Source: Candidatus Shapirobacteria bacterium
GTDB taxonomy: Bacteria > Patescibacteriota > Microgenomatia > UBA12405
DNA: 64,000 nucleotides
Direction of reading: 5' to 3'
Assembly: GCA_016188545.1 (NCBI GenBank)
Contig: JACPHO010000001.1
Coordinates: forward strand, 175,336 to 239,335
Shown here: one piece after another, positions 1,861-27,819 of the stretch
Position numbering within the stretch: position 1 is the stretch's first letter
How the letters are laid out: each line of letters starts with the position of its first letter
Notes under the pieces: generated by a model
What the model was told of the DNA's origin: nothing
The model's database searches: none
What the model saw: the letters and a program-made list of their open reading frames with translations, nothing else
Program-made: the position numbers and the translations under genes

Positions 1861-2319
1861 ATGACACCTATCACCTCGTTGGGTCTTTCCCGACTCCGCG
1901 AACATCTTCAGGAACTAAAAACTGAGCTAGTCCGGACCTTTGATGAGCGTAGTGCTGCTGCTGCCGAAGGGGACTTAAAAGAAAACTCAGCCTACATCTT
2001 TATGACCGAACGTGCTCATGTCCTCCAGTCCCAAATCGACAAAGCCTCCGCCGATATTAAGGATGCCTCGATTATCATTCCCCCAAAAGATACTCACAAA
2101 GTCGCTCTAGGTCACCGGGTCAAAGTCCTTTTTAAAAACGAAAATCGTGAGTTAACCTTAACTTTGGTTGGTAAAAACGACAACGCGCTTAAGCCCGGCT
2201 GGATTTCTGCCGATAGCCCATTAGGCATTGCCATTCTTGGTCGACCCGCCGGTACTTCAGTTATCGTCAACGATCAACCAGTTGCTATTCTGGAGATTAC
2301 GCACGGTGATATCGAATGA
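1861..2319 (+). CDS. greA: Transcription elongation factor GreA
   Basis: GDLKENSAY motif; C-terminal ISADSPLGIAILGRPAGTSV is FKBP-like. Confidence 0.7.
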   Translation: MTPITSLGLSRLREHLQELKTELVRTFDERSAAAAEGDLKENSAYIFMTERAHVLQSQIDKASADIKDASIIIPPKDTHKVALGHRVKVLFKNENRELTLTLVGKNDNALKPGWISADSPLGIAILGRPAGTSVIVNDQPVAILEITHGDIE

Positions 2320-2380
2320 CATGTTCCCAGATAAAAAGTGATATATTTCGTCTTTTCTTCGGGTATGATAAATTGTATTT

Positions 2381-3264
2381 ATGAATACAATATCGCCAGT
2401 CGTTTTTGAAAATATTCAAATCCGTCGCGAGTATGATAGCCGAAAAGAAACCTGGTATTTTTCAATTGTTGATATTATATCAGTCTTGATTTCTCAACCT
2501 GACCATAAAAAGGCTCAAAGTTATTGGACAACTTTAAAAAATCGTCTCAAAGACGAAGGTAGTCAGGTCGTCACAAGATGTGACCAACTGAAATTACTAG
2601 CATCTGATGGCAAAAAGTATCTCACCGACGTTGCCGATACAGAAACTCTATTTCGTTTAATCCAATCAATTCCCTCCCCAAAAGCCGAGCCAATCAAGCT
2701 TTGGTTGGCCAAAGTCGGTCATGAACGAGTTCAAGAGATTGCCGACCCCGAGAAATCAATTAATCGTGCCAGATCAATCTGGCAGAAGTCAGGTAGAAGT
2801 CAAAAGTGGATCCAGCAGCGTACGGTTGGTCAAGAAACCCGTAACAAACTAACTGATTATTGGGCCGATCATGAGATAACCAAAGCCCAAGAGTTTGCCA
2901 TTCTCACCAATCTAATTCATCAAGAATGGTCTGGTGTTTCTGTAAAATCTCACAAAAATATTAAGGGTCTAAAACATCAAAATCTTCGCGACCACACCTG
3001 CCTGCCGGCAGGCAGGTGACCGATACCGAGCTATCCACTCGTCAAATCTCCGAAACAATCGAGGCAACTGGTCTAATGGAAAACAAAACTGCTGGACACG
3101 AAGGTGGTCAAATATCAAAAGAAGCCAGACTAAAACTAGAACAAAAAACCGGCAAAAAAATAGTTTCCAACGAGAACTATCTATCTGATGTGTCCACAGC
3201 TTTTTCCAACGCTAAAGATGCAATTAAATATCTTCGCAAATCAACCAAGTCAAAATCAAGATAA
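2381..3264 (+). pseudogene. dinD: DNA-damage-inducible protein D (DinD)-like gene split into two ORFs (2381-3019 and 3016-3264) by a 22-24 bp palindromic insertion
   Basis: N-terminal part ends HQNLRDH + TCLPAGR*; the second ORF starts VTDTELSTRQISETIEATG; together they align to E. coli DinD (...KILDHMGSTELAAN...). Removing ~23 nt restores the frame. Confidence 0.5.
2995..3018. repeat. Perfect GC-rich palindrome CACCTGCCTGCCGGCAGGCAGGTG; the core ACCTGCCTGCCGGCAGGCAGGT recurs at 57976-57997
   Basis: Read directly; perfect 24-bp inverted repeat in an AT-rich context. Confidence 0.9.
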
Positions 3265-3314
3265 TATTAACAGTCAACTCTACCGGTAACTAACATTCTG
3301 GCTTATAATCAGGT

Positions 3315-4289
3315 ATGAAAAATCGTGTCGGTCTTGGAACATTCCCACTAGCAGGTGTATTTAGTCCAATCACTACTGATGATGCTGAAAAGTTAGTCAA
3401 GAAGTTCATCGACTTAGGCGGTTATTACTTTGACACCGCCCCGCTTTATGGCAATGGAGAAATCGAGAAATTGCTCGGTAGAGTATTAAGGTCAGTTCCC
3501 AGAGAAAACTATTACATTGGTACCAAAACAATAAAGCATGTTGACGAAAACGGAAAACTATTTAAGAGCGGAAAATACGATGATGTGGTCAAACAGATTG
3601 ACAACTCACTCTTGCGATTAAATACCGACTATGTGGATCTATTGATGGTTCACCAGCCAGACGAAAGTGTCCCTATCGAAGAGACATTAAAGGCGATGGA
3701 GCACCTTCAAAAAGTTGGTAAAGTCAAAGAATTGGCAGTCTCCAATGTCGATTTAGACGAGCTAAAAGAATACAACCAAACGGGAAAAATAAAATATGTC
3801 CAAAATAGATTTAGTCTAATTAGTCGAAGTTTATCTCCAGAGTTCGAGAAATACTTACTGGATAACCAAATATATTTACTCCCATATCATTTGCTGGAAA
3901 TCGGTTTACTAACAGGAATCGCATTTGAAAAATATAAACTAAGAGAAGGGGACTTGAGAGAGAAGCTGTCATATTGGAGTAATGAAAATCAAAAGGTAAT
4001 TTTCGAATGGGTTAGAAATTCACTGGCTCCTATCTCAAAAAAATTAGGTATAACGATTGGGCAACTCAACCAAGCTTGGGCACTTCACCAGTCATTCATA
4101 GATTACATTGTTGTTGGTACTACCAATCCCGAATATCTTCAAATAAATCTTAATTCAAGTGACATAAAATTAAATAGAGAAACCTTGGCTGAAATCGAAA
4201 CTGTCTACAAAAAACTCGAAGAAAATATAAAACAAAAATACGGTCAGACAATGAGGGAGTTCAGAGGCCTAAATGAAAAGTTTTACTAA
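3315..4289 (+). CDS. Aldo/keto reductase family oxidoreductase
   Basis: AKR N-terminal signature GLGTFPLAG...YYFDTAPLYGNGE and later AKR family motifs. Confidence 0.75.
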   Translation: MKNRVGLGTFPLAGVFSPITTDDAEKLVKKFIDLGGYYFDTAPLYGNGEIEKLLGRVLRSVPRENYYIGTKTIKHVDENGKLFKSGKYDDVVKQIDNSLLRLNTDYVDLLMVHQPDESVPIEETLKAMEHLQKVGKVKELAVSNVDLDELKEYNQTGKIKYVQNRFSLISRSLSPEFEKYLLDNQIYLLPYHLLEIGLLTGIAFEKYKLREGDLREKLSYWSNENQKVIFEWVRNSLAPISKKLGITIGQLNQAWALHQSFIDYIVVGTTNPEYLQINLNSSDIKLNRETLAEIETVYKKLEENIKQKYGQTMREFRGLNEKFY

Positions 4290-4308
4290 GTAGACTGTCA
4301 CGGGTTCA

Positions 4309-5019
4309 CTATCTCATCACATATCCCGCACAAACATCCAAACATATTCCCGTAATATGAGCTGACTCGTCGGTGGCTAAAAAATAAACTGCATTGGCAA
4401 TGTCTTCCGGTTCTCCCATTCTTTTCAAAAGTGTCGCCTCAACTAGCTGGGCTACCCGCTCAGGGTTGTAATTTTTCATCATATCAGTGTTTGTCGCTCC
4501 AGGAGCAACTGCGTTTACCCTAATCTTTGGTGCTAGCTGCCTAGCCATACTTTTTGTAAACCCAAGTAATGCGGCTTTGGTACCTGCATAAATTGGGTCA
4601 GAACTGCCAACATGGGACACGGTCGAAGAAATATTAATTATCGTCCCTTCAGCCATTTTGTCCAAAACATTCTTGGTGCACAGGTAAACACCAACTTCAT
4701 TCACCATAACTACCTTGTTAATTGTCTCAATATCGTAGTTATTCAGTCCTTTTACGTAGGAAAACATTCCTGCATTGTTAACCAAACAGTCTATTTGTCC
4801 AAAGTCTTTAAATGCTCGATCAAATGACTCAGAAATACTTTTTGAATCAGACATATCCATCTGGTAGTATTTGCAGTTTTCAATTTCCGGACCTGGTTTT
4901 GTTCTATAAAAACCAGCAACCGACCAACCATTACCCGAGAATTTTTTTGCAGTCGCTAGACCAATTCCTCTGGAAGCACCAGTAATGAATACTACTTTTT
5001 TCATACCTGATTTTATCAT
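4309..5019 (-). CDS. Short-chain dehydrogenase/reductase (FabG-like)
   Basis: TGASRGIG Rossmann motif, NNAG, YxxxK (YAGTKAAL). Confidence 0.75.
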   Translation of the reverse strand: MIKSGMKKVVFITGASRGIGLATAKKFSGNGWSVAGFYRTKPGPEIENCKYYQMDMSDSKSISESFDRAFKDFGQIDCLVNNAGMFSYVKGLNNYDIETINKVVMVNEVGVYLCTKNVLDKMAEGTIINISSTVSHVGSSDPIYAGTKAALLGFTKSMARQLAPKIRVNAVAPGATNTDMMKNYNPERVAQLVEATLLKRMGEPEDIANAVYFLATDESAHITGICLDVCAGYVMR

Positions 5020-5043
5020 TCAACCAATCAACTCAGCCAGTGG

Positions 5044-5090
5044 CTATTCAATCAAACAAAAAAAATCCCCCCGATTTCTCGAGGGGATTT
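5044..5090 (-). terminator. Rho-independent terminator for the RRM-protein gene (minus strand)
   Basis: AAATCCCC-12 nt loop-GGGGATTT hairpin followed on the minus strand by a T8 run. Confidence 0.6.
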
Positions 5091-5108
5091 AAATTTAACT
5101 AAATAAAT

Positions 5109-5468
5109 TTAGTAGTTGTCACCACCGCCGTAGCTTCCGCCACCGCGATTGTTTCCACCACCATATCCACCACTTCTTTGTGGACCACGTGAGTAATTAT
5201 CACGTCGTGGGGGTCGATCTTCCATTGGGCGAGCTTCGTTGACCCGAAGTGTTCGACCTTCGAATTCTTTACCATCCCACATGGAGATAGCAGCATTCAT
5301 TACTTCCTCAGATTCGACTTCTACAAATCCGAAACCCTTGGATTGACCAGAGAATTTATCTTTAATAACAACTACTGAAACGATTGTTCCAGCTTGCGCA
5401 AAAGCTTCGCGCAGACTATCTTCGGTGGTTTGATAAGACAAGCCGCCTACGTACAATTTTTTTACCAT
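5109..5468 (-). CDS. RRM-type RNA-binding protein with Gly-rich C-terminal tail
   Basis: RNP-1/RNP-2 (LYVGGL, KGFGFVE); GGYGGG tail. Confidence 0.7.
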   Translation of the reverse strand: MVKKLYVGGLSYQTTEDSLREAFAQAGTIVSVVVIKDKFSGQSKGFGFVEVESEEVMNAAISMWDGKEFEGRTLRVNEARPMEDRPPRRDNYSRGPQRSGGYGGGNNRGGGSYGGGDNY

Positions 5469-5561
5469 TCTGTAAAAAACTATTAATAATGTAGTGGCCT
5501 CTCCCTCAAACTTTACTTCAAAGAATCATCCCTACAAGTAAGCATTATACCTTAATTCCTG

Positions 5562-6125
5562 TTATTCCACTACTTCTTCTTCCAAGACCACTTCATCTCC
5601 CGAATCTACCGGTGCAGTTTTAGCCGCTGGCATCGGTGTTGGGTAAGTCAGCGTAAAGCTATCGGTTATCTGTGTACTACTTTTACTGTCTGTCGAATAC
5701 TCCAAAGTAAACAGTATATTGTCGTCAATAATACCAATGGTGGTCATTCCCCCCTTAACTACTTTTTTACCTGGTTTACCGCTTAATTCACTATCTATAA
5801 TTACTCCATCTTTGAACTTGGCTTCGCCTTTTACCCAGGCACTTACATCTTTATACTTGCTATCTATGGCCATTATTTTTAGTCCATCAGTGGTTGTCAA
5901 GTTGGCATATGAAGTATTGTCATTCGAATCAGTCGTCACTTTAATCGTCCCCGGATAACTAAAAACAAATCCCGCTTCATCTGTCCAAGTTAGGGTATTT
6001 ATTGTTGGAATTGGTGTTTGTTCTGGTACCATTGTCGGTGTTTGCTGTTTTGGTGGTGTTATTTTTGTGCACGCTCCCAACACCATACTCACAAAAACCA
6101 CCATCAGCAATTTGTGTTTTGTCAT
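5562..6125 (-). CDS. Putative lipoprotein of unknown function
   Basis: Signal peptide with lipobox-like LGAC; no recognised domain. Confidence 0.4.
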   Translation of the reverse strand: MTKHKLLMVVFVSMVLGACTKITPPKQQTPTMVPEQTPIPTINTLTWTDEAGFVFSYPGTIKVTTDSNDNTSYANLTTTDGLKIMAIDSKYKDVSAWVKGEAKFKDGVIIDSELSGKPGKKVVKGGMTTIGIIDDNILFTLEYSTDSKSSTQITDSFTLTYPTPMPAAKTAPVDSGDEVVLEEEVVE

Positions 6126-6148
6126 AAGCTAAGATAACATAAACCATC

Positions 6149-6577
6149 ATGAAAAACTCTTTGTTTTCAGTTTTTATTTTTTACTTTTTATTTTTTACTT
6201 TTGTTTCTTCTGCCAATGCAGCTAAGAAACGAGTCTATGGTTCCACCGCTGTAGTTTCCACCACCTCCAAATCAGTTGTTGTTTCACCCCGTCTTCGCCG
6301 CGATAAAGGTGCCCTCCTTCTAAATGTCAGCGGCCTGTCTACAGTCAAGTCTCTTACCTACGAACTAACTTATACTGGTAGTGGGCAGGATCAGGGTGTT
6401 TTTGGGTCAATTGAACCTTCAACTTCCGGCAATAGTACTTCAAGATCTCTTTACTTTGGTACCTGTTCGCATAACGTTTGCAACCCTCACTCGGGTGTCA
6501 AAAACGCCCGTCTCACTGTCACCATCAAAACTTCCGCCGGTAAAAACATCATCCGCCGTTATCGCATCAAAACTTAA
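6149..6577 (+). CDS. Secreted hypothetical protein
   Basis: N-terminal signal peptide (FLFFTFVSSANA). Confidence 0.4.
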   Translation: MKNSLFSVFIFYFLFFTFVSSANAAKKRVYGSTAVVSTTSKSVVVSPRLRRDKGALLLNVSGLSTVKSLTYELTYTGSGQDQGVFGSIEPSTSGNSTSRSLYFGTCSHNVCNPHSGVKNARLTVTIKTSAGKNIIRRYRIKT

Positions 6578-17819: not shown

Positions 17820-18908
17820 GTGTTAGAATACTATCATATTATGTACAACTACAGGCTTAAAGAAACTACAACTTGGGTTAACAAACTTATTTCCACTCAC
17901 GAATCCGGCACAATTATAGGTTTACCAATGTCTGGTAAACTCAAAACTATTGAGTCTATCTTCGAGTCAAAAAATCAAATAGACCAACTTTTGGTTATCG
18001 ATCTTTCAATTGCTCCAAAGAGAATTTCAGATTTCATTTCTACAATTCAGCCAAAAATTAACCAATTTCTTTCATCGGGTGGCAAAGTTGTCTGTTTAGA
18101 AAACTGTTCAATAAACTCAAAGAAGCGCCGTCATCAACTAAAGGCAACCACTTCAATTCGAACCGAAATGAACCGTTCTTTCATCTATATTTATAGTTTT
18201 TCCGAAGACATTCTTCTAAAAACAAAAACACTTGATAAATATAACTATCTAAGCGGCATTAGAAACAACATTAACTACTTTCCCTATGCCACCCTTAGTG
18301 AAGTACCTGAACTACTCCAGCAAAACAAAATAAGGTTTGACACCAAATTATTTAAGCTATCACCCGGCGAAGTACTTCAAAAAACGAGTGGTGTCCCTTA
18401 TCTAATTAAGACTCTCTTTCGTGACGAGAATCAACTTGGTGAAAGTATTAGACATCTTATCTCTGAGTTTTCCTCCTCTCAGATTAACCATCTTAAACAT
18501 TTAACCCCAGAGACTATCAAATCTTTCCACAAACTCGGCTTGCTAACCAGCAGCGGTGATTTTATTTCTACCTTAATTAAGCAGGAAGTGTCGAACTCAA
18601 AAATTAGTTTGGAACTAATAATTGACTCCGATAAACAAAAAATACTCGTCGGCGCCCAATCAATCATGTCTGACTTAACCAGCTATGAAAAAGAAATTCT
18701 CTTCAAACTAAAAAAAGACCATAAAATTTCCCGTGAAGAAATTGCCGCTACTTGTTATGGCTCCAAAAAATCAGCTGATTATTCTGACTATGCCATCGAC
18801 AAAATTATTTCTCGACTTCGCAATAATCTGACAAATTTAGGTGCTGATCCCTCGGTTATTAAAACCAATCGTGGGTTTGGTTATAGCTTAAATAACCATG
18901 ACCAATAA
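17820..18908 (+). CDS. Transcriptional regulator with C-terminal OmpR/PhoB-type winged-helix domain and N-terminal P-loop-like region
   Basis: C-terminal LTSYEKEILFKL...AIDKIISRLRNNL...KTNRGFGYSL (trans_reg_C); N-terminal GLPMSGK. Confidence 0.55.
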   Translation: MLEYYHIMYNYRLKETTTWVNKLISTHESGTIIGLPMSGKLKTIESIFESKNQIDQLLVIDLSIAPKRISDFISTIQPKINQFLSSGGKVVCLENCSINSKKRRHQLKATTSIRTEMNRSFIYIYSFSEDILLKTKTLDKYNYLSGIRNNINYFPYATLSEVPELLQQNKIRFDTKLFKLSPGEVLQKTSGVPYLIKTLFRDENQLGESIRHLISEFSSSQINHLKHLTPETIKSFHKLGLLTSSGDFISTLIKQEVSNSKISLELIIDSDKQKILVGAQSIMSDLTSYEKEILFKLKKDHKISREEIAATCYGSKKSADYSDYAIDKIISRLRNNLTNLGADPSVIKTNRGFGYSLNNHDQ

Positions 18909-20820: not shown

Positions 20821-20958
20821 GACTTGAGATTATAACTTTTCCGGATTGACAAAACCATCATCTTTTCTTATTCTTCTTATACCCGAATTAAACCCAAAGA
20901 CTATCCATAAACATTTTTCCTGTTTTATTCTTAAATCGTAATTCATAAATCGTACTTC

Positions 20959-22131
20959 ATGATTTCCACTCTACCTTTAGCCTCAGTACTACGCCCCAAA
21001 AACCTCGACGACTTCGTTGGCCAGTCTCATTTGGTGGGAGAAGGCAAGCCCTTGAGGTTGGCAATTCAAAACCATCAGATATTTTCAATGATTTTTTGGG
21101 GCCCACCTGGTGTTGGTAAGACTACTCTTGCCAAAATCATTGCTCAAGAATCAAACGCGGACCTCTATGAACTCTCGGCTGTCTCTGCTAGTAAAGATGA
21201 TATTAAGAAAATAATTGGTAATGGTGAACATGGACTTGTCAAAAAGATCCTGTTTCTAGACGAAATCCATCGATTTAACAAAGCTCAGCAAGACTTTCTC
21301 TTGCCTTATGTTGAGTCCGGTATTCTCACCCTAATTGGTGCAACCACCGAAAATCCCAGCTTTGAAGTCATTTCTCCACTTCTGTCTCGCTGTCGGGTCT
21401 TTACTCTTAACGAACTTTCTTCAGAGGAAGTCGGTGAGATTATCAATCGGGCCTGCAAAGTTCTTAAGATCAAAATAACTAAGGTCCCCAAAGATTGGTT
21501 GACAGGAATGGCCAACGGTGATGCCCGTCAGGCAATTACCATGATCGATAATGCAGTTACCCTCTACGGTAAGCTAACGATTGACACTCTCAAGCAGACT
21601 CTCCAAAACTCATTTCTTCGTTTTGATAAGAAGGGCGAGGAACATTACAATACCATTTCGGCTTTTATCAAATCAATGCGGGCTAGTAACCCCGACGCAG
21701 CTCTCTATTATCTTGCCCGAATGGTTGATGCCGGTGAAGACCCTGTTTTTATCGCCAGAAGAATGGTTGTCTTTGCCTCCGAAGATATTGGTATTGCCAA
21801 TTCTTCGGCTCTAATGTTGGCCAATCAAGTCTTCCAAGCAGTTACCCAAATTGGTTACCCTGAGTGTGCCATCAACCTAGCCCATGGAGTAGTTTATCTG
21901 GCCACTTCCCCCAAAAATCGCAGTGCTTACGACGGTCTCCGTGCCGCCCAAGCAGATGTAAAAATGTATGGTAATTTACCAATACCGCTTAATCTCCGCA
22001 ATGCCCCCACCAGTCTCATGAAAGAGTTAGGCTATGGCAAAGGTTATCAAAAATACACCACCGAAGACTTGTTACCAGACAAATTAAAAGGTAAAAAATA
22101 TTTTAAGCCGATAAAGAAAAATGAATCATAA
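20959..22131 (+). CDS. rarA: Replication-associated recombination protein A (AAA+)
   Basis: [15 protein letters not shown], Walker [10 protein letters not shown], MgsA C-terminal domains. Confidence 0.8.
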
Positions 22132-22666
22132 ATACATTATCTATATGAAAGCTGGACCTTATTGTGGCTATTCCCTCGAAGAAATTGAAAAAATAAAAAA
22201 CAATGAAGACAAACTGTACGGCAAATTCTATTGGGGGTATGGCGGGGTCTTTTGTCACCCCAAACGCGTTCTGCCATTTGTCGAAGAAAGTATGAAAAGT
22301 GGCCAAAAAATTTACGTTTACTTTTCCATCACCAACTCAAAATTTAATTCACCAATTCCACTTTGTCATTTCAAGTCAACAAATAAAGAAAATTGGCAAC
22401 CTCTTGAGCCAGAAGTTGTTTTGGTTGGCAATCAGTATTCACTAGTTTGCACCAATTTACAAAAAACAGATTTTAAAATAAATTCAAATGAATATATTTC
22501 AATGTTGGGAGACAAACCGGGTAAAAATCTAAATGAATATATTAGATATCGAGTTGACAAATCGTGCGCTATTTACAATCCGACCATTACCAATGTAAAA
22601 CCAAAAAACATAACCATTTCTTATGTCTCGGAGCTAGTCGAGCCATATTGTATATATGTAAAATAA
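22121..22666 (+). CDS. Hypothetical Cys-containing protein in the repair operon
   Basis: ORF overlaps rarA by 11 nt and precedes the radical SAM gene by 2 nt. Confidence 0.4.
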   Translation: MNHKYIIYMKAGPYCGYSLEEIEKIKNNEDKLYGKFYWGYGGVFCHPKRVLPFVEESMKSGQKIYVYFSITNSKFNSPIPLCHFKSTNKENWQPLEPEVVLVGNQYSLVCTNLQKTDFKINSNEYISMLGDKPGKNLNEYIRYRVDKSCAIYNPTITNVKPKNITISYVSELVEPYCIYVK

Positions 22667-22667
22667 C

Positions 22668-23540
22668 ATGCTCACCAAAATCAACGAATTACAAGCCAAA
22701 ACAATTCTCACCAAATCCGGTCTGCCAGGTGCTGATTGGGTAATTAATCCATATCGTGGCTGCCAAATGGGTTGCATGTATTGCTATGCTGCCCAAATCG
22801 CCAGATGGAAACACCCAAGCGAGGAGTGGGGGAGTTATCTAGACATCAAAATCAATGCCCCCGAATTACTCAAAAAAGAACTGACAAATCTCGAAACAAA
22901 AAACAAATCAAAAGATTTTGGATTTATATTCTTCAGCTCCGTTACTGATCCTTATACTCCACTCGAGGCCAAATATCACTTAACCCGCAGCTGTCTTCAA
23001 GTTTTATCCGATTTTGGGTATGAGGGTAAAATTGGAATTCAGACAAAATCACCCCTCGTTTTAAAAGACATCGACATTTTAAAACTTCTAAAAAATGTCC
23101 AAGTAGGCTTTACCGTAACAACTTTGGACGACAAGGTATCTAGGTTTTTGGAAGTATCAGCTCCACCAGTCAGCGAAAGAATCAGAGCATTAAAAGAGCT
23201 AAGCCGACGAGGTGTCCCCACCTACGCTTTTATTGGCCCGTTATTGCCACATTTTATGAATAGTAAGGCAGATATCAACCACTTACTGGACACACTCCAG
23301 GATGCCGGTGTTGCCGAAGTCTGGTTTGAGCACATTAACTTAAGTTCAAAGATCAAAGCCCGACTTTTCGAATATCTAGAGACCGAGTCTCCTAATTTAA
23401 TTCCCGAGTTTGAAAAGGCTGACAACCAAGAGTATCGGGACAAGTTCAATCAGGTTATCTATGAATGCCTTGAAGGCAGAAATCTCAAACTAGGACTTGG
23501 CAAGGTAATTTTCCATCACGATTTACCCCAGAAAAAATGA
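22668..23540 (+). CDS. Radical SAM protein, spore-photoproduct-lyase (SplB/COG1533) family
   Basis: CQMGCMYC = CxxxCxxC; NPYRGC context typical of the SPL family. Confidence 0.6.
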   Translation: MLTKINELQAKTILTKSGLPGADWVINPYRGCQMGCMYCYAAQIARWKHPSEEWGSYLDIKINAPELLKKELTNLETKNKSKDFGFIFFSSVTDPYTPLEAKYHLTRSCLQVLSDFGYEGKIGIQTKSPLVLKDIDILKLLKNVQVGFTVTTLDDKVSRFLEVSAPPVSERIRALKELSRRGVPTYAFIGPLLPHFMNSKADINHLLDTLQDAGVAEVWFEHINLSSKIKARLFEYLETESPNLIPEFEKADNQEYRDKFNQVIYECLEGRNLKLGLGKVIFHHDLPQKK

Positions 23541-23866
23541 AAAAAACTTCCCCAACTCCATTTATGAAAAAAGTTTGGGAACTAGCCCTCTCAATCCCTC
23601 CCGGACGAGTTACTACTTATGGTTTACTAACCATTAGTGCTGGCGGTCACCCGATGATGGCTCAGATGATTACTTCTATTCTGGGGCGCAGCCCGGACGT
23701 AGACCGCATCCCTTTTCATCGGATTGTCTATGCCGGCGGGAAAGTCTGGATGTCACCCAAATATCGCAAGGTAAGATTAAAACTATATAAAGAAGAGGGG
23801 ATCATCTTAGATAAAAAAGATAAAATAGCCAACTTTGAAAAGATAGTCTATGGTTTTGGTTTATAA
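23537..23866 (+). CDS. Alkyltransferase-like (ATL) protein: MGMT DNA-binding fold without the active-site Cys
   Basis: PFHRIV replaces PCHRV; compare the true Ogt at 27502. Confidence 0.55.
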   Translation: MKKTSPTPFMKKVWELALSIPPGRVTTYGLLTISAGGHPMMAQMITSILGRSPDVDRIPFHRIVYAGGKVWMSPKYRKVRLKLYKEEGIILDKKDKIANFEKIVYGFGL

Positions 23867-23875
23867 TATTTTTTA

Positions 23876-24313
23876 ATGAGGAAAGATATCCAGGAATATT
23901 TGACCGAAGCGACCGATCTTTCGGCCATCGGACATAGACTAGTTGAGTTTCTGAGATGTCTAAAAAGTCAGGGTAACCCAAAAATCGGGTATGTAGCAGG
24001 CATGATTACTTCTGAGGGGCCAGAGTTTGTCGAGCGTAACTTATTGCGACTGGAGAAATACACCCAACAAATATCTAAAAAGTATCATTTCCCAGTATTT
24101 TCCCAAAATGATATTTTTACACCCGAGGTTTACCAGCTAATCAAAGCATCAGGAGTGACTAGAGAGGAATTTGAGGAATTTTATCGACAGGTTCACGGAT
24201 CAGGTTTAATAACCCACCTGTTTATGACTCCTAGATGGGAGTTGTCACGTGGGGCCACCGACGAGTTGAACACGGCAGTAATGGCCAATCTAACCATAAT
24301 TTATATTGAGTGA
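23876..24313 (+). CDS. Hypothetical protein (possibly nucleoside-deoxyribosyltransferase-like/DUF4406-like fold)
   Basis: IGYVAGMITSEGPEF pattern; weak. Confidence 0.35.
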   Translation: MRKDIQEYLTEATDLSAIGHRLVEFLRCLKSQGNPKIGYVAGMITSEGPEFVERNLLRLEKYTQQISKKYHFPVFSQNDIFTPEVYQLIKASGVTREEFEEFYRQVHGSGLITHLFMTPRWELSRGATDELNTAVMANLTIIYIE

Positions 24314-24321
24314 CAGGTTAT

Positions 24322-24350
24322 TTGACACACTAAATGAGGGGTGCTACAAT
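24322..24350 (+). promoter_or_regulatory. Consensus sigma70 promoter TTGACA-17 nt-TACAAT (with TGC extended -10)
   Basis: Read directly: ttgaca cactaaatgaggggtgc tacaat. Confidence 0.7.
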
Positions 24351-24511
24351 CCGTACATAAATCGAAATTTCAATGATTGCATCGAAACTTTCGGTAGTTC
24401 TTTAAAATTTTGGTTTTGTTCCCGAGATCGACAAGCAGTAAACTAGTTTTACTATTTATCGATCCCGGGAATCTCTCCAAATTTGTTCGTGTCCGATTTT
24501 TACCCGTAGTT

Positions 24512-24606
24512 CGAGTTCCAAGGCAAGTGTAGTGTTCTACCGCAAGCGTACGAGTTCAGCAAGTGTAGTGTTCTACCGCAAGTGTTCGAGTTCCCTGCAA
24601 GTGGCC
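24512..24606 (+). repeat. ~2.6 tandem copies of a 36-39-nt unit (cgagttc..gcaagtgtagtgttctaccgcaag..)
   Basis: Exact 24-mer gcaagtgtagtgttctaccgcaag at 24523 and 24559; cgagttc at 24512, 24551 and 24587. Confidence 0.8.
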
Positions 24607-24918
24607 CCACCGCATCCTACCCCTGGGATGAAAGCTTATTAAAGACACGGCGAATGTTTTGGAGAGACGTCGTGTCGATGGTGAGGATGGCATATGCCCT
24701 CCTCTACCGCGGTCGCCCAAAAGGGCGACCACCACACACAAAAAACCAAAAACAAAAACAAAAAAACAGCAAGACCTTGGACTAAAAATCCTTTGTATAT
24801 ATATTTTTTATATATCCCCAAAGTGTTTTTATTCCGCTGTTTTTTTTCGTAATTCCGATGATATCGGAACTGATGAGTTCTGAGACTTATGTCTCTAAGA
24901 ACGAATACGACCACTTCA

Positions 24919-24941
24919 ATACCCCACATGGGGTATTTTTT
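24919..24941 (+). terminator. Rho-independent terminator
   Basis: ATACCCCA-cat-TGGGGTAT hairpin + TTTTTT. Confidence 0.65.
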
Positions 24942-24957
24942 ATGTCACAATAATCTT

Positions 24958-25107
24958 ATGTCTACCGACAAAACTGCTCTAGGCGACCTTAAAATCTTAT
25001 TGACCATCATCTTCTTTGCCAGTTTAATTTGGGGATTTTTTAAGTTCAAAAATAAAATATCTTCCACCGCTCGTCCTGTTCCTTCAACTCAAGTAAATCA
25101 AAAATAG
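24958..25107 (+). CDS. Possible small membrane protein (49 aa)
   Basis: MSTDKTALGDLKILLTIIFFASLIWGFF; weak. Confidence 0.2.
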   Translation: MSTDKTALGDLKILLTIIFFASLIWGFFKFKNKISSTARPVPSTQVNQK

Positions 25108-25802
25108 TGTCTATTCACACCGAGCTTCAAAAACTAAACTACTCCGTTGATACCAAGACCCGACAATGGGTTCAAAAATACCTCGGTTCAGATAAACCCA
25201 CACGTTGCATCAAGTCCGCTGTCATCCAGCAGATTGCAAAAGATAAATTAAAAGGAGTCACTAGCCCTAACAACCTTTTTGGTTTGATTGATGATATTTA
25301 TACTCACGCCACTACTTTTGAAGAAATGGCCATTGCCGCCAATATTTTCACCAAAGGCCGTCGCAATCACGACTCATCGGTAATAAAATACTTGGACAAG
25401 TGGCTAAATAAAACCGTAGGTTGGGCTGAAGTTGACAGTCTATGTCAGTCGAGTATCAGTGCGATTGATATGCTAAAAAACTGGTCAAAATGGCGTAAAC
25501 AGCTAAACACTTTTTCCCTCGATAAAAATGTCCATAAGCGTCGTGCATCTATGGTCTTGCTCTGTCGGTCACAACGCGAGTCGGATGACTCCCGCCTATC
25601 AGACTTAGCATTCGAGTTGGTGAATAGATTAAAAGGGGAGAAGGATATCTTGATTACCAAAGCCATCTCCTGGATCCTCAGATGCACCGTAAAGCACCAC
25701 CCAGACGAATTGGCAGTCTATTTAGAAGACCATGTAGACACTTTACCTCGAGTTGCCTATCGTGAAGCCAGTAAAAAATTGGCTACTGGTAAGAAAAACT
25801 AA
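25107..25802 (+). CDS. AlkD/AlkC-family DNA alkylation repair glycosylase (HEAT-like repeats)
   Basis: C-terminal KAISWILRCTVKHHPDELAVYLEDHVDTLPRVAYREASKKL matches PF08713. Confidence 0.65.
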   Translation: MSIHTELQKLNYSVDTKTRQWVQKYLGSDKPTRCIKSAVIQQIAKDKLKGVTSPNNLFGLIDDIYTHATTFEEMAIAANIFTKGRRNHDSSVIKYLDKWLNKTVGWAEVDSLCQSSISAIDMLKNWSKWRKQLNTFSLDKNVHKRRASMVLLCRSQRESDDSRLSDLAFELVNRLKGEKDILITKAISWILRCTVKHHPDELAVYLEDHVDTLPRVAYREASKKLATGKKN

Positions 25803-26029
25803 CCAAGCCTTCTCGCTTTTATAGTTCCACCACCATTAACAGTGTCAAGGTAAAAGCCGAGATCAGGTGACAACTCTGCAGCTGTCATGCGTCTAATCCT
25901 TTCTTGCATTTCCTGTTCTTTAACTTGAGCTCGTCGCCTGATTTCTGCTGCGGTCAAGTGTTGTTTTGGTGGCACGACAGGTACTGGAAGTGTATTATTG
26001 GGTCCTTCTTTTGGAGGAAGTTTGGTCAT
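25799..26029 (-). CDS. Small hypothetical protein
   Basis: ORF only. Confidence 0.2.
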   Translation of the reverse strand: MTKLPPKEGPNNTLPVPVVPPKQHLTAAEIRRRAQVKEQEMQERIRRMTAAELSPDLGFYLDTVNGGGTIKARRLG

Positions 26030-26086
26030 TATTTATATCAAACACACCGTGAACGTCCGCAATTATACCATTCCGTTAGTTTCAAC

Positions 26087-27352
26087 TTATCTATCTACAA
26101 AAGTCAGGGCGTATCCAGTTGCGTCACCGCGTCCGGTACGACCAATGCGATGACAATAATCATCGTAATTATTTGGTTTATCGAAGTTGATTACGTGGGT
26201 AATATCAGCAATATCAAGTCCTCGTGCAGCTACATCAGTAGCGACTAATATTCGGATAACATTTTCCTTGAACATTCTAACGACCGCTTGACGCTTGTGT
26301 TGAGGTTTACCGCCATGTAGTGAGGCCACCTTATGACCTTTTGTGGACAAACCAACAGATAGCCTCTCGACCATACTTTGAGTTGCTCCAAAAACCAATA
26401 CTTTTTTAAGATCCTGGTTCTCTAAAAGTTCATGTAGTTTTGCTTCTTTTTCATGACGAGCTACTTGGACGATGTTTTGTTCAACGTGTGAAGAACTGTC
26501 TTGGGTCTTTACTGATATTTTTACAGGACTAGTAAGTAAGGTGTCTATCAGAGCTTCAACCTTTTTATTGACTGTAGCTGAGAAAAATAGTGTTTGTCTT
26601 TCCTTGGGAATCTGGTTCATGATGTGACGGATGTCTTCAATGAAACCCATGTCCAACATTCGGTCAACCTCATCTAATACGACGGTATTCAATTTTGAAA
26701 AATTGATAACTCGACGTTCCCCAAGATCTTTGATTCTTCCTGGAGTTCCGATGATTACTTGTGGGTCACGTTTAATATCAATAATCTGCTCACGCATGTA
26801 AGCACCACCAATGGCTAGAGCTATATAGACACGAAGTCCTGGTGTGAAAGTGCGAAACTCTTGTTTAATCTGTTGAGCCAGCTCGCGAGTAGGAGCCAAA
26901 ATGATTATTCTTTTACCTGGGTTCTTTAATATTTCGTTAATAAGAGGTAGTGCAAAAGCGGCCGTTTTACCAGTTCCAGTATTGGCAATTCCCAATACAT
27001 CTTTACCTTGCATTACTTCAGTAATGACTTTGTCTTGAATTGGGGTTGGTTTTATATAACCCTTAGTAACTACGTTTGCCAAAAGTGTTTGATCAAAACC
27101 AAAATCAGCGAAACTATTGACAGTTACTGTCTCTTCGATAGTAACTACTGGAGTCGCTTTTCGAATAAACATGGCAGTATCAATATGCTCTCCAAAACCG
27201 CGCTTGGGCTTGGCCCACTTGGTAGTCGGTTTATTTTTAAACCAACCCCTGCGGGTACCGGAAGAACTCCCAGCCTGACGGCTGCGATAATTACCGGAAT
27301 TGTTTGAACCGAAATTTTTAAAACCAGATGAGGGCTTACTGTTGTTGTACAT
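26087..27352 (-). CDS. DEAD-box ATP-dependent RNA helicase with G/S/R-rich N-terminal extension
   Basis: Q motif, GTGKT, DEVD, SAT, HRIGRTGR. Confidence 0.8.
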   Translation of the reverse strand: MYNNSKPSSGFKNFGSNNSGNYRSRQAGSSSGTRRGWFKNKPTTKWAKPKRGFGEHIDTAMFIRKATPVVTIEETVTVNSFADFGFDQTLLANVVTKGYIKPTPIQDKVITEVMQGKDVLGIANTGTGKTAAFALPLINEILKNPGKRIIILAPTRELAQQIKQEFRTFTPGLRVYIALAIGGAYMREQIIDIKRDPQVIIGTPGRIKDLGERRVINFSKLNTVVLDEVDRMLDMGFIEDIRHIMNQIPKERQTLFFSATVNKKVEALIDTLLTSPVKISVKTQDSSSHVEQNIVQVARHEKEAKLHELLENQDLKKVLVFGATQSMVERLSVGLSTKGHKVASLHGGKPQHKRQAVVRMFKENVIRILVATDVAARGLDIADITHVINFDKPNNYDDYCHRIGRTGRGDATGYALTFVDR

Positions 27353-27501
27353 AAAAAAATTAAATTGTGGCTACCTCGGTGATACCGGGATTAATATTGC
27401 CCACAAATAATTATTTAAGTACAGCTACTGTACAAAGGGGGCAGTTATTATGATCGATGCCTTAACTAGATCAGCTGCTAGTCTATCATATATAATAAAT
27501 T

Positions 27502-27819
27502 ATGCAAATATTCCAAAAAATTAGGCACATTGTCTGTCAAATCCCATCAGGGAAAGTCAGCACTTATGGCGCCATAGCTAAGGCAGTTGGTACCGATCCT
27601 AGGGTTGTTGGTTGGGCACTTAAGGGTAACTCTGATATGGCTATACCTTGTCATAGAGTAGTTAAGGCAAACGGTAGTCTGGCAGCCCAGTTCTCACTGG
27701 GTAATTGGCCGGAACAGCGCCGCCGCCTGGTTCTGGAGGGCATTGAGTTCACTGGGAATAGAATTAAAAACTTTCCGAAGGTCCAGTTTACTCCGGGAGC
27801 GATAGATATAAATACCTGA
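27502..27819 (+). CDS. ogt: Methylated-DNA--protein-cysteine methyltransferase (catalytic domain only)
   Basis: IPCHRVV active-site motif. Confidence 0.65.
   Translation: MQIFQKIRHIVCQIPSGKVSTYGAIAKAVGTDPRVVGWALKGNSDMAIPCHRVVKANGSLAAQFSLGNWPEQRRRLVLEGIEFTGNRIKNFPKVQFTPGAIDINT

Follow-up and report, generated by a model that had tools for sequence, protein, structure and literature searches.

A group of small genes lying between the recombination-associated ATPase gene rarA and a DEAD-box helicase gene was analysed within a window of 64,000 nucleotides (the whole stretch of DNA considered here), which is part of a 563,806-bp contig of Candidatus Shapirobacteria, in the Candidate Phyla Radiation (CPR, or Patescibacteria). 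The group encodes a 181-aa protein referred to here as unk181, a COG1533-type ('SplB-like') radical S-adenosylmethionine (radical-SAM) enzyme, an alkyltransferase-like protein (ATL) and a 145-aa DUF4406 protein, with genes for an AlkD-type DNA glycosylase and a single-domain MGMT protein close by (Table 1). The locus is read, with modest confidence, as a lineage-specific array for DNA-lesion handling and nucleotide hygiene, in which alkylation repair is supported and photoproduct repair is not. What the sequence itself shows is a repair neighbourhood, annotated and restricted to one clade, that includes a single new protein family; the novelty lies in that clade-specific neighbourhood, with its undescribed family, and in an uncharacterised SOS-type radical-SAM subfamily.

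The original prediction, drawn from the nucleotide sequence and its open reading frames (ORFs), was of a compact island of alkylation and photoproduct repair with two uncharacterised members. All of its named ORFs were found at the coordinates it gave and its family calls hold, and its core observation, a concentration near rarA of alkylation-repair genes (ATL, AlkD with its catalytic residues and a Cys-bearing MGMT domain), is confirmed. Its photoproduct repair and its placing of AlkD in one operon with ATL are not, as described below.

Recurrence of the array in related genomes

Neighbourhoods were compared across 52 non-redundant loci around radical-SAM homologues and approximately 35 loci around unk181 homologues. 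Shapirobacteria-like genomes have a conserved frame consisting of a polysaccharide deacetylase gene on the minus strand, rarA, a variable slot, the DEAD-box helicase gene on the minus strand and POR, with the position of the helicase gene kept in L008, L015, L016, L020, L027, L048, L057 and L068-L078. The genes in the slot between rarA and the helicase gene are co-directional and tightly packed, and they are shuffled between genomes. The COG1533 radical-SAM enzyme and ATL are encoded there most often, and the remaining cargo comes from a limited pool consisting of Cys-bearing MGMT, AlkD, an HhH-GPD-like glycosylase, MazG-like pyrophosphatases, a PNPOx-like flavoprotein, DUF4406, HMUDK_hel and unk181. 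The radical-SAM gene has rarA upstream of it in 14 of the 52 loci, all of them Shapirobacteria-like. The HhH-GPD-like protein (322 aa, in the slots at L008 4665-7008 and L016 7879-10670) scores 23.5 bits against PF00730, which is below threshold, and the HMUDK_hel protein (PF18723) consists of the helical domain of 5-hmdU DNA kinase alone, without the kinase domain.

Pairing between unk181 and ATL was counted over eight Shapirobacteria unk181 lineages with no more than 83% identity between any two. The unk181 gene lies directly upstream of ATL in five of the eight, with an overlap of 11-17 nt as called in four and abutting genes in the fifth; a single gene separates them in two further lineages, the window among them, and one lineage has no ATL. 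ATL also lies within approximately 70 nt of the radical-SAM gene in L020, L044 and the window, and in L057 an MGMT gene stands between the two.

Repair genes accompany the same families in unrelated lineages. In Patescibacteria outside the Shapirobacteria clade, a UvrA-like gene (750 aa, PF17755) is located 13-79 nt upstream of the radical-SAM gene (L043 5663-7921 and L052 1065-3317); its product is a short ABC ATPase with the UvrA DNA-binding domain. Outside the CPR, unk181 follows a 1100-1150-aa UvrD/PD-(D/E)XK helicase-nuclease gene in five loci (L001, at 2039-6573, L092, L111, L112 and L114). In L001 and L112 a small ORF lies between the two genes, which in L001 encodes a GNAT acetyltransferase, and these loci have BipA upstream and Fpg and AP endonuclease genes a few kb away.

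A possible alternative explanation for this neighbourhood is frozen synteny, whereby a variable region between the housekeeping anchors rarA and the DEAD-box helicase gene accreted small useful genes through descent and tolerance of insertions, with no pathway involved. Some version of the neighbourhood does recur in related genomes, as the original prediction required, but it is confined to the Shapirobacteria-like clade, and 38 of the 52 radical-SAM loci, outside Shapirobacteria-like genomes, show none of these neighbours, so that much of the conservation could be inherited synteny. The arrays also carry membrane proteins, Fic, a Bro-N protein, ABC and MFS transporters, a P-type ATPase and an IS200-like transposase, and AlkD and MGMT form transcription units of their own. 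The restriction to one clade and the unrelated cargo speak for this explanation. However, the same functional classes return in a co-directional arrangement with overlapping junctions despite the shuffled order, and independent repair neighbours are found in unrelated lineages (UvrA-like by the radical-SAM gene, UvrD/PD-(D/E)XK by unk181), which together argue for selection on co-location over purely inherited synteny. Synteny without a pathway is accordingly considered unlikely, while still the weightiest of the alternatives.

ATL, MGMT, AlkD and radical-SAM proteins

The ATL protein consists of the MGMT C-terminal domain alone (PF01035, 51.1 bits against a cut-off of 27, residues 8-88 of 109), and its best match in the Protein Data Bank (PDB) is Vibrio parahaemolyticus vpAtl (2KIF). 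Its P59-F60-H61-R62 lines up with PWFR of vpAtl and PCHR of Mycobacterium tuberculosis Ogt, placing Phe60 in the column of the acceptor Cys, where orthologues have F, W or Y. The predicted ATL identity is thus borne out by the domain, the replacement of the catalytic Cys by Phe60 and the Vibrio match. As in Schizosaccharomyces pombe Atl1, vpAtl, Escherichia coli YbaZ and Thermus thermophilus TTHA1564, a single MGMT C-terminal domain of approximately 110 aa has an aromatic residue for the acceptor Cys, although the window copy has Phe where Trp is usual. It also differs in genomic setting, in that the window ATL shares a predicted operon with the radical-SAM gene and the ATL of relatives is translationally coupled to unk181, neither of which arrangements was found described; a literature search for 'alkyltransferase-like' with 'radical SAM' returned no papers.

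The MGMT protein (105 aa) matches PF01035 at 73 bits and passes TIGR00589 (49.0 bits against 46.4), with an I48-P-C50-H-R-V active-site motif and Arg34 in the Arg-finger column. It has no N-terminal Ogt domain and covers only the C-terminal parts of full-length models (e.g. positions 101-152 of 175), so that its description as a true Ogt is upheld for the PCHR Cys, the Arg finger and the TIGR00589 score but not for the two-domain Ogt architecture. Comparable Cys-bearing copies are present in L057, L068 and L070.

The call of an AlkD-like glycosylase is likewise sustained. PF08713 matches over the full length (111.1 bits against 21, residues 8-225 on model positions 3-213), and the catalytic W109, D113 and W187 of Bacillus cereus AlkD are kept as W106, D110 and W189 (GW106AEVD110 aligned with WWDSVD, and ISW189ILR with IGWVLR). 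The catalytic Trp-x3-Asp and second Trp are thus common to both proteins, while the sequence match of the window protein to AlkD chains is weak (34 bits, residues 68-224 only), and it is best described as a predicted glycosylase.

The radical-SAM protein was proposed to be of the spore photoproduct lyase (SPL) family, uniting photoproduct with alkylation repair in one island. By sequence it is a distant SPL homologue and not an SPL, since the 4Fe-4S cysteines and tyrosines align, the H-atom donor cysteine is replaced and family thresholds are missed. A 46-sequence alignment of relatives of the window protein was compared by hhalign with two SPL sequences (that of Bacillus subtilis SplB having been checked against the 4FHC chain), giving a probability of 94.7% over SPL residues 74-272 only. 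The cluster motif is kept, with C32-QMG-C36-M-Y38-C39-Y40 facing C91-MGH-C95-H-Y97-C98-Y99 of B. subtilis SPL (CxxxCxYCY), and the orthologues are labelled 'DNA repair photolyase' by JGI. The protein shares with B. subtilis SplB and Geobacillus thermodenitrificans SPL (PDB 4FHC, whose Cys140 corresponds to Cys141) the radical-SAM TIM-barrel core and both tyrosines of the motif. In contrast, Val92 (FFSSVTD) stands opposite the H-donor Cys141 (FEASCTS), with Val also the family consensus, and SPL residues 1-73 have no counterpart in the shorter window protein (290 aa against 342 aa). All SPL-family scores fall below cut-off (PF20903, 24.0 bits against 27; TIGR04070, 30.8 against 400; TIGR03886, 19 against 437), and a phmmer search of the PDB at E up to 1 gave no SPL chains and chance matches only. 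Spore photoproduct itself arises in dehydrated spore DNA bound by SASP proteins, the host is non-sporulating, and we know of no CPR bacterium that sporulates. Hence, of the SPL-specific residues, the tyrosines stand and the cysteine does not, and the photoproduct claim fails on Val92, the missing N-terminal ~70 residues and the PF20903 and TIGR04070 scores; an SPL function is regarded as highly improbable.

The best curated models for the protein are those of the PA0069 family, radical SAM mobile pair protein B and the Rv2578c family in NCBIfam (120-154 bits over approximately 240 residues), with all equivalog scores below cut-off (NF033668 for PA0069, 154.1 against 360; NF038135 for Rv2578c, 153.6 against 410; TIGR04470, 120.3 against 430). 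By these scores it is related to the curated COG1533 families at the superfamily level only, and cut-offs of 360-430 bits so far out of reach point to a separate Patescibacteria subfamily. Orthologues 63-80% identical are found across Shapirobacteria, Roizmanbacteria, Gottesmanbacteria, WWE3 and others, and homologues at E < 1e-10 number 3114 proteins. The 'pair A' partner of the mobile pair protein is absent from the window locus. COG1533 splB-like genes come under LexA control in Verrucomicrobia, Bacteroidetes, Actinobacteria and several Proteobacteria, and LexA also targets Rv2578c in a RecA-dependent manner (PMC4951493, PMC8565304, PMC3381160). These SOS-regulated, damage-linked 'SplB-like' proteins are the best-scoring families for the window protein, whose gene also lies among repair genes.

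unk181, the DUF4406 protein and the layout of the locus

The two ORFs of the original prediction without assigned function are identical to HYV64_01260 (unk181) and HYV64_01275 (the 145-aa protein). Neither matches an unrelated housekeeping family, the outcome that would have told against the original prediction. Only unk181 is new, as the 145-aa protein belongs to a known DUF4406/NDT-like fold (NDT, nucleoside 2-deoxyribosyltransferase).

unk181 has 55 close homologues, and the family extends to 387 clusters at 50% identity, nearly all of them standalone proteins of 170-200 aa. Its 24 invariant columns include K10, G12, P13, W38, G39, C45, P47, T71, S73, W92, R144 and K147. There were no family models for it in Pfam (E up to 10, 30 members), NCBIfam, PADLOC or PHROGs, no Pfam domain is fused to any of the ten longest homologues, and the family profile had no match among PDB sequences and no convincing structural neighbour. 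The public annotation gives a 173-aa protein beginning 8 codons later (window 22121-22145). However, residues 5-8 belong to a beta-strand predicted with confidence, and homologues conserve the xIIxMKAGPY stretch; this N-terminal strand and the conservation upstream of Met9 favour the 181-aa start at 22121 with its 11-nt overlap of rarA, as originally proposed, and the NCBI start appears to be 8 codons too late.

The contexts of the unk181 family are mixed. Apart from the repair settings described above, outside the CPR it also ends an operon with the order PRTase-CE (PF24390), a 340-370-aa protein, PRAI, HAD phosphatase(s) and unk181 in six loci, one of them a Chloroflexota contig (Table 1). 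The 340-370-aa protein gives weak CARF6 matches, PRAI is sometimes fused to a ribulose-phosphate-epimerase-like domain, and the surroundings are mobile- or defence-like (TIR, TraG, a Cas1 fragment, IS66, a DNA methylase and HerA-like). A search of the literature for 'PRTase-CE' found no papers, and the operon looks like an undescribed nucleotide-centred system. unk181 is hence an undescribed family, repair-flavoured but found in mixed contexts.

For the 145-aa protein, 35 homologues were found. Pfam DUF4406 (PF14359) matches 29 of 31 aligned homologues (best E 8.8e-6), although the window copy itself lies below Pfam detection, with no match at E up to 0.01. The family has an NDT-type Rossmann-like fold and an invariant C-terminal motif, W-E-x-S-x-G-A-x-D-E, that includes Glu130, a candidate counterpart of the NDT nucleophile, and is a known fold family rather than a new one. 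Compared with the NDT superfamily (NDT, Rcl/DNPH1, MilB, PA1492-like 1T1J and DUF4406), the window protein has an extra N-terminal helical segment (H2-31) and no sequence-level match to solved structures, a profile of its family having likewise found none among PDB sequences. The literature on DUF4406 yielded incidental mentions only.

These features bear on a second alternative, in which the locus serves base modification or modified-base salvage, such that the radical-SAM enzyme would introduce or alter a modified base in DNA or RNA, unk181 would act as its reader, and the nucleotide would be produced or recycled by the NDT-like, HMUDK_hel, PNPOx and MazG-like proteins. The fold matches obtained for unk181, all of them weak, are without exception to proteins that read modified bases (YTH, EVE, ASCH and McrB-N), HMUDK_hel is directly upstream of unk181 in L008, L072-L075 and L082, NDT-fold enzymes exchange bases, unk181 occurs in the phosphoribosyl-handling operons (PRTase-CE, PRAI, HAD), and the radical-SAM gene of L018 lies near CPDase, HIT and Dus genes. 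However, hydroxylase, glycosyltransferase, dedicated polymerase and restriction partner are all absent, the HMUDK_hel proteins have no kinase domain, the constant companions are lesion binders (ATL, MGMT, AlkD and HhH-GPD), and the wider radical-SAM family is SOS-controlled. This alternative is considered rather improbable.

From gene spacing and consensus scans, rarA, unk181, radical-SAM, ATL and DUF4406 are read as one putative five-gene transcription unit with rarA first. The successive junctions are -11, +1, -4 and +9 nt (the gap before the radical-SAM gene thus being 1 nt and not the 2 nt first given), and the consensus scan found no convincing terminator anywhere from rarA to the 3' end of the 145-aa gene. 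The number of sigma-70-like sites in the region is not above shuffle expectation. The 793-nt intergenic stretch between the 145-aa gene and AlkD (24314-25106) holds a strongly structured RNA with a near-consensus promoter and a terminator hairpin, and since both lie before AlkD, this gene is placed outside the five-gene unit. The claim that AlkD is co-operonic with ATL therefore falls, an independent non-coding RNA (ncRNA) gene intervening, and in relatives AlkD is found on either side of the helicase gene. The locus would then comprise three or more units, namely the five-gene unit, the ncRNA, AlkD, and the mutually divergent helicase and MGMT genes. G+C content is uniform across the locus and the remaining window, giving no compositional sign of a foreign island, and horizontal acquisition of the locus as an island was rejected on this basis.

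Table 1. Features of the window and gene orders or positions at other loci (rSAM, radical-SAM gene; (-), minus strand)
Feature or locus	Position	Strand	Evidence or gene order
sigma-70-like promoter candidate upstream of rarA	20846..20874	+	TTGACA-17-TATTCT; consensus match only
rarA/mgsA, AAA+ recombination-associated ATPase	20959..22131	+	MgsA_C 176 bits, AAA_assoc_2, RuvB_N (Pfam)
unk181, 181-aa protein, undescribed family	22121..22666	+	overlaps rarA by 11 nt
COG1533-type ('SplB-like') radical-SAM enzyme, 290 aa	22668..23540	+	Radical_SAM 52 bits
ATL, 109 aa, motif IPFHRIV	23537..23866	+	4-nt ATGA overlap with radical-SAM gene; PF01035
DUF4406 protein, 145 aa, nucleoside 2-deoxyribosyltransferase-like fold	23876..24313	+	9-nt gap after ATL
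ncRNA gene	24322..24945	+	promoter 24322-24350; RNA ~24357-24945; terminator hairpin 24918-24937
AlkD-type HEAT-repeat alkylpurine DNA glycosylase gene	25107..25802	+	PF08713 111 bits
DEAD-box helicase	26087..27352	-	DEAD 171 bits, Helicase_C 114 bits
Single-domain MGMT protein, 105 aa, IPCHRV (Cys50)	27502..27819	+	divergent from helicase gene
L069			RarA, rSAM, unk181, ATL (overlaps 4 and 11 nt), DEAD(-), AlkD, POR
L070			RarA, rSAM, DUF5680, unk181, ATL, PNPOx, MGMT
L068			RarA, MazG-like, AlkD, membrane protein, rSAM, membrane protein, HAD, PNPOx, DUF5680-like, unk181, MazG, ATL, DEAD(-), MGMT, POR
L008			rSAM, HhH-GPD-like, PNPOx, HMUDK_hel, unk181, DEAD(-), AlkD, POR
L016			rSAM, HhH-GPD-like, Fic, PNPOx, MazG-like, DEAD(-), POR
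L015			RarA, rSAM, ABC transporter, ATL, DUF4406, DEAD(-), POR
L072-L075			RarA, DUF5680-like, Fic, PNPOx, HMUDK_hel, unk181, ATL
PRTase-CE operon loci	L005 1455-7456; L010 1309-4645; L012 1906-6549; L083; L107; L119 1-7508

The ncRNA promoter (TTGACA-17-TACAAT with a TG, 11 of 12 matches) is near-consensus, and a hairpin followed by a U-run forms the intrinsic terminator. The RNA, of approximately 590 nt, has a minimum free energy z-score of -7.4 against shuffles. A counterpart in the Shapirobacteria relative L025 (11531-12010, approximately 430 nt, z-score -10.1) also directly follows a DUF4406 gene and is then followed by opposite-strand genes. Both have the -35 and -10 boxes, a hairpin at the 5' end, a long-range UUUUGGUUU/AAACCAAAA helix, a CA-rich tail and the terminator, and they share a hairpin in which a G-C to A-U change between the two is compensatory. 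The window RNA contains a tandem duplication (2 x 36 nt, 94% identical, window 24523-24593) that its L025 counterpart lacks. Rfam searches in gathering and E-value modes assigned the RNA to no family, giving sub-threshold chance matches only, and ARAGORN detected no tRNA or tmRNA. A role as an AlkD leader was rejected, as the L025 homologue precedes opposite-strand genes. A 72-aa ORF (24889-25107, plus strand) that has a hydrophobic segment and ends at the AlkD start codon (TAGTG) was also rejected and is probably not a gene, with the ncRNA terminator inside it, no family match and no tblastn homologue in 67 loci. Upstream of the frame, a 362-aa protein (window 17820-18908, plus strand) has a C-terminal OmpR-type winged-helix domain (Trans_reg_C) without a receiver domain, and is also kept in that position in L025 and L044.

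Proposed roles and implications

Binding and flipping of O6-alkylguanine-type adducts, and their marking for excision, are established for Atl1, vpAtl and TTHA1564, and under the favoured reading of a lesion-handling array the window ATL would do the same. unk181, apparently a small alpha/beta protein whose invariant surface is rich in aromatic residues and Cys, would bind or process the kind of altered base or nucleotide on which ATL acts, as a ligand- or base-binding accessory usually tied to ATL. The radical-SAM enzyme would apply a 5'-deoxyadenosyl radical to a DNA lesion other than spore photoproduct, a role suggested by its SPL homology, by the regulation of its wider family through LexA and by the rarA, ATL and UvrA-like genes nearby. 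The DUF4406 protein would cleave or exchange the N-glycosidic bond of damaged (deoxy)nucleotides and may fill the niche of the MazG-like genes in sister genomes, NDT-like and MazG-like proteins then being interchangeable nucleotide sanitisers. Such sanitising would matter for a CPR cell living on salvaged nucleotides. From their own transcription units, AlkD and MGMT would remove N3- and N7-alkylpurines and reverse O6-methylguanine, respectively. The adaptive-response genes of E. coli (ada-alkB, alkA and aidB) likewise bring direct reversal, through an MGMT domain, and glycosylase functions close together. Unlike these, the window array has neither an Ada-type regulator nor AlkB, is built on ATL, a radical-SAM enzyme and nucleotide-pool enzymes, and varies in its cargo by genome.

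Besides the clade restriction and the unrelated cargo, several observations weigh against this reading. The window ATL has Gln43 in the Arg-finger column, which is Arg in vpAtl and Ogt; across 12 Shapirobacteria ATL orthologues this column is Arg in 5 and Gln in 7. ATL occurs without unk181 in 7 related loci, so that unk181 is not needed by ATL, and the PRTase-CE/CARF-like/PRAI/HAD operons that unk181 ends contain no repair gene. The operon structure is a prediction from spacing and consensus scans only, and we know of no biochemical function for any non-SPL COG1533 enzyme, DUF4406 or unk181.

A more specific possibility is a new pathway made up of ATL, unk181 and the COG1533 radical-SAM enzyme, in which the catalytically dead alkyltransferase would flip out a base carrying an alkyl group or another adduct, and direct reversal or processing of the lesion would fall to the radical-SAM enzyme or to unk181 with its Cys. 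This is considered improbable, but if true, the widespread SOS-regulated 'SplB-like' enzymes would gain their first substrate and ATL its first dedicated partner. ATL proteins are thought to pass lesions to nucleotide excision repair and, to our knowledge, no dedicated partner has been reported; at approximately 180 aa, and translationally coupled to ATL in several lineages, unk181 is a concrete candidate for one.

Non-SPL COG1533 proteins belong to the LexA regulons of many phyla, and the locus described here would narrow the search for their substrate to DNA lesions, because the Patescibacteria version is 63-80% conserved, operon-fused to ATL and near rarA, and elsewhere lies beside a UvrA-like gene. 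This version also offers small, tractable proteins for study. For CPR biology, the array suggests how salvage-dependent cells may guard their DNA from damaged precursors.

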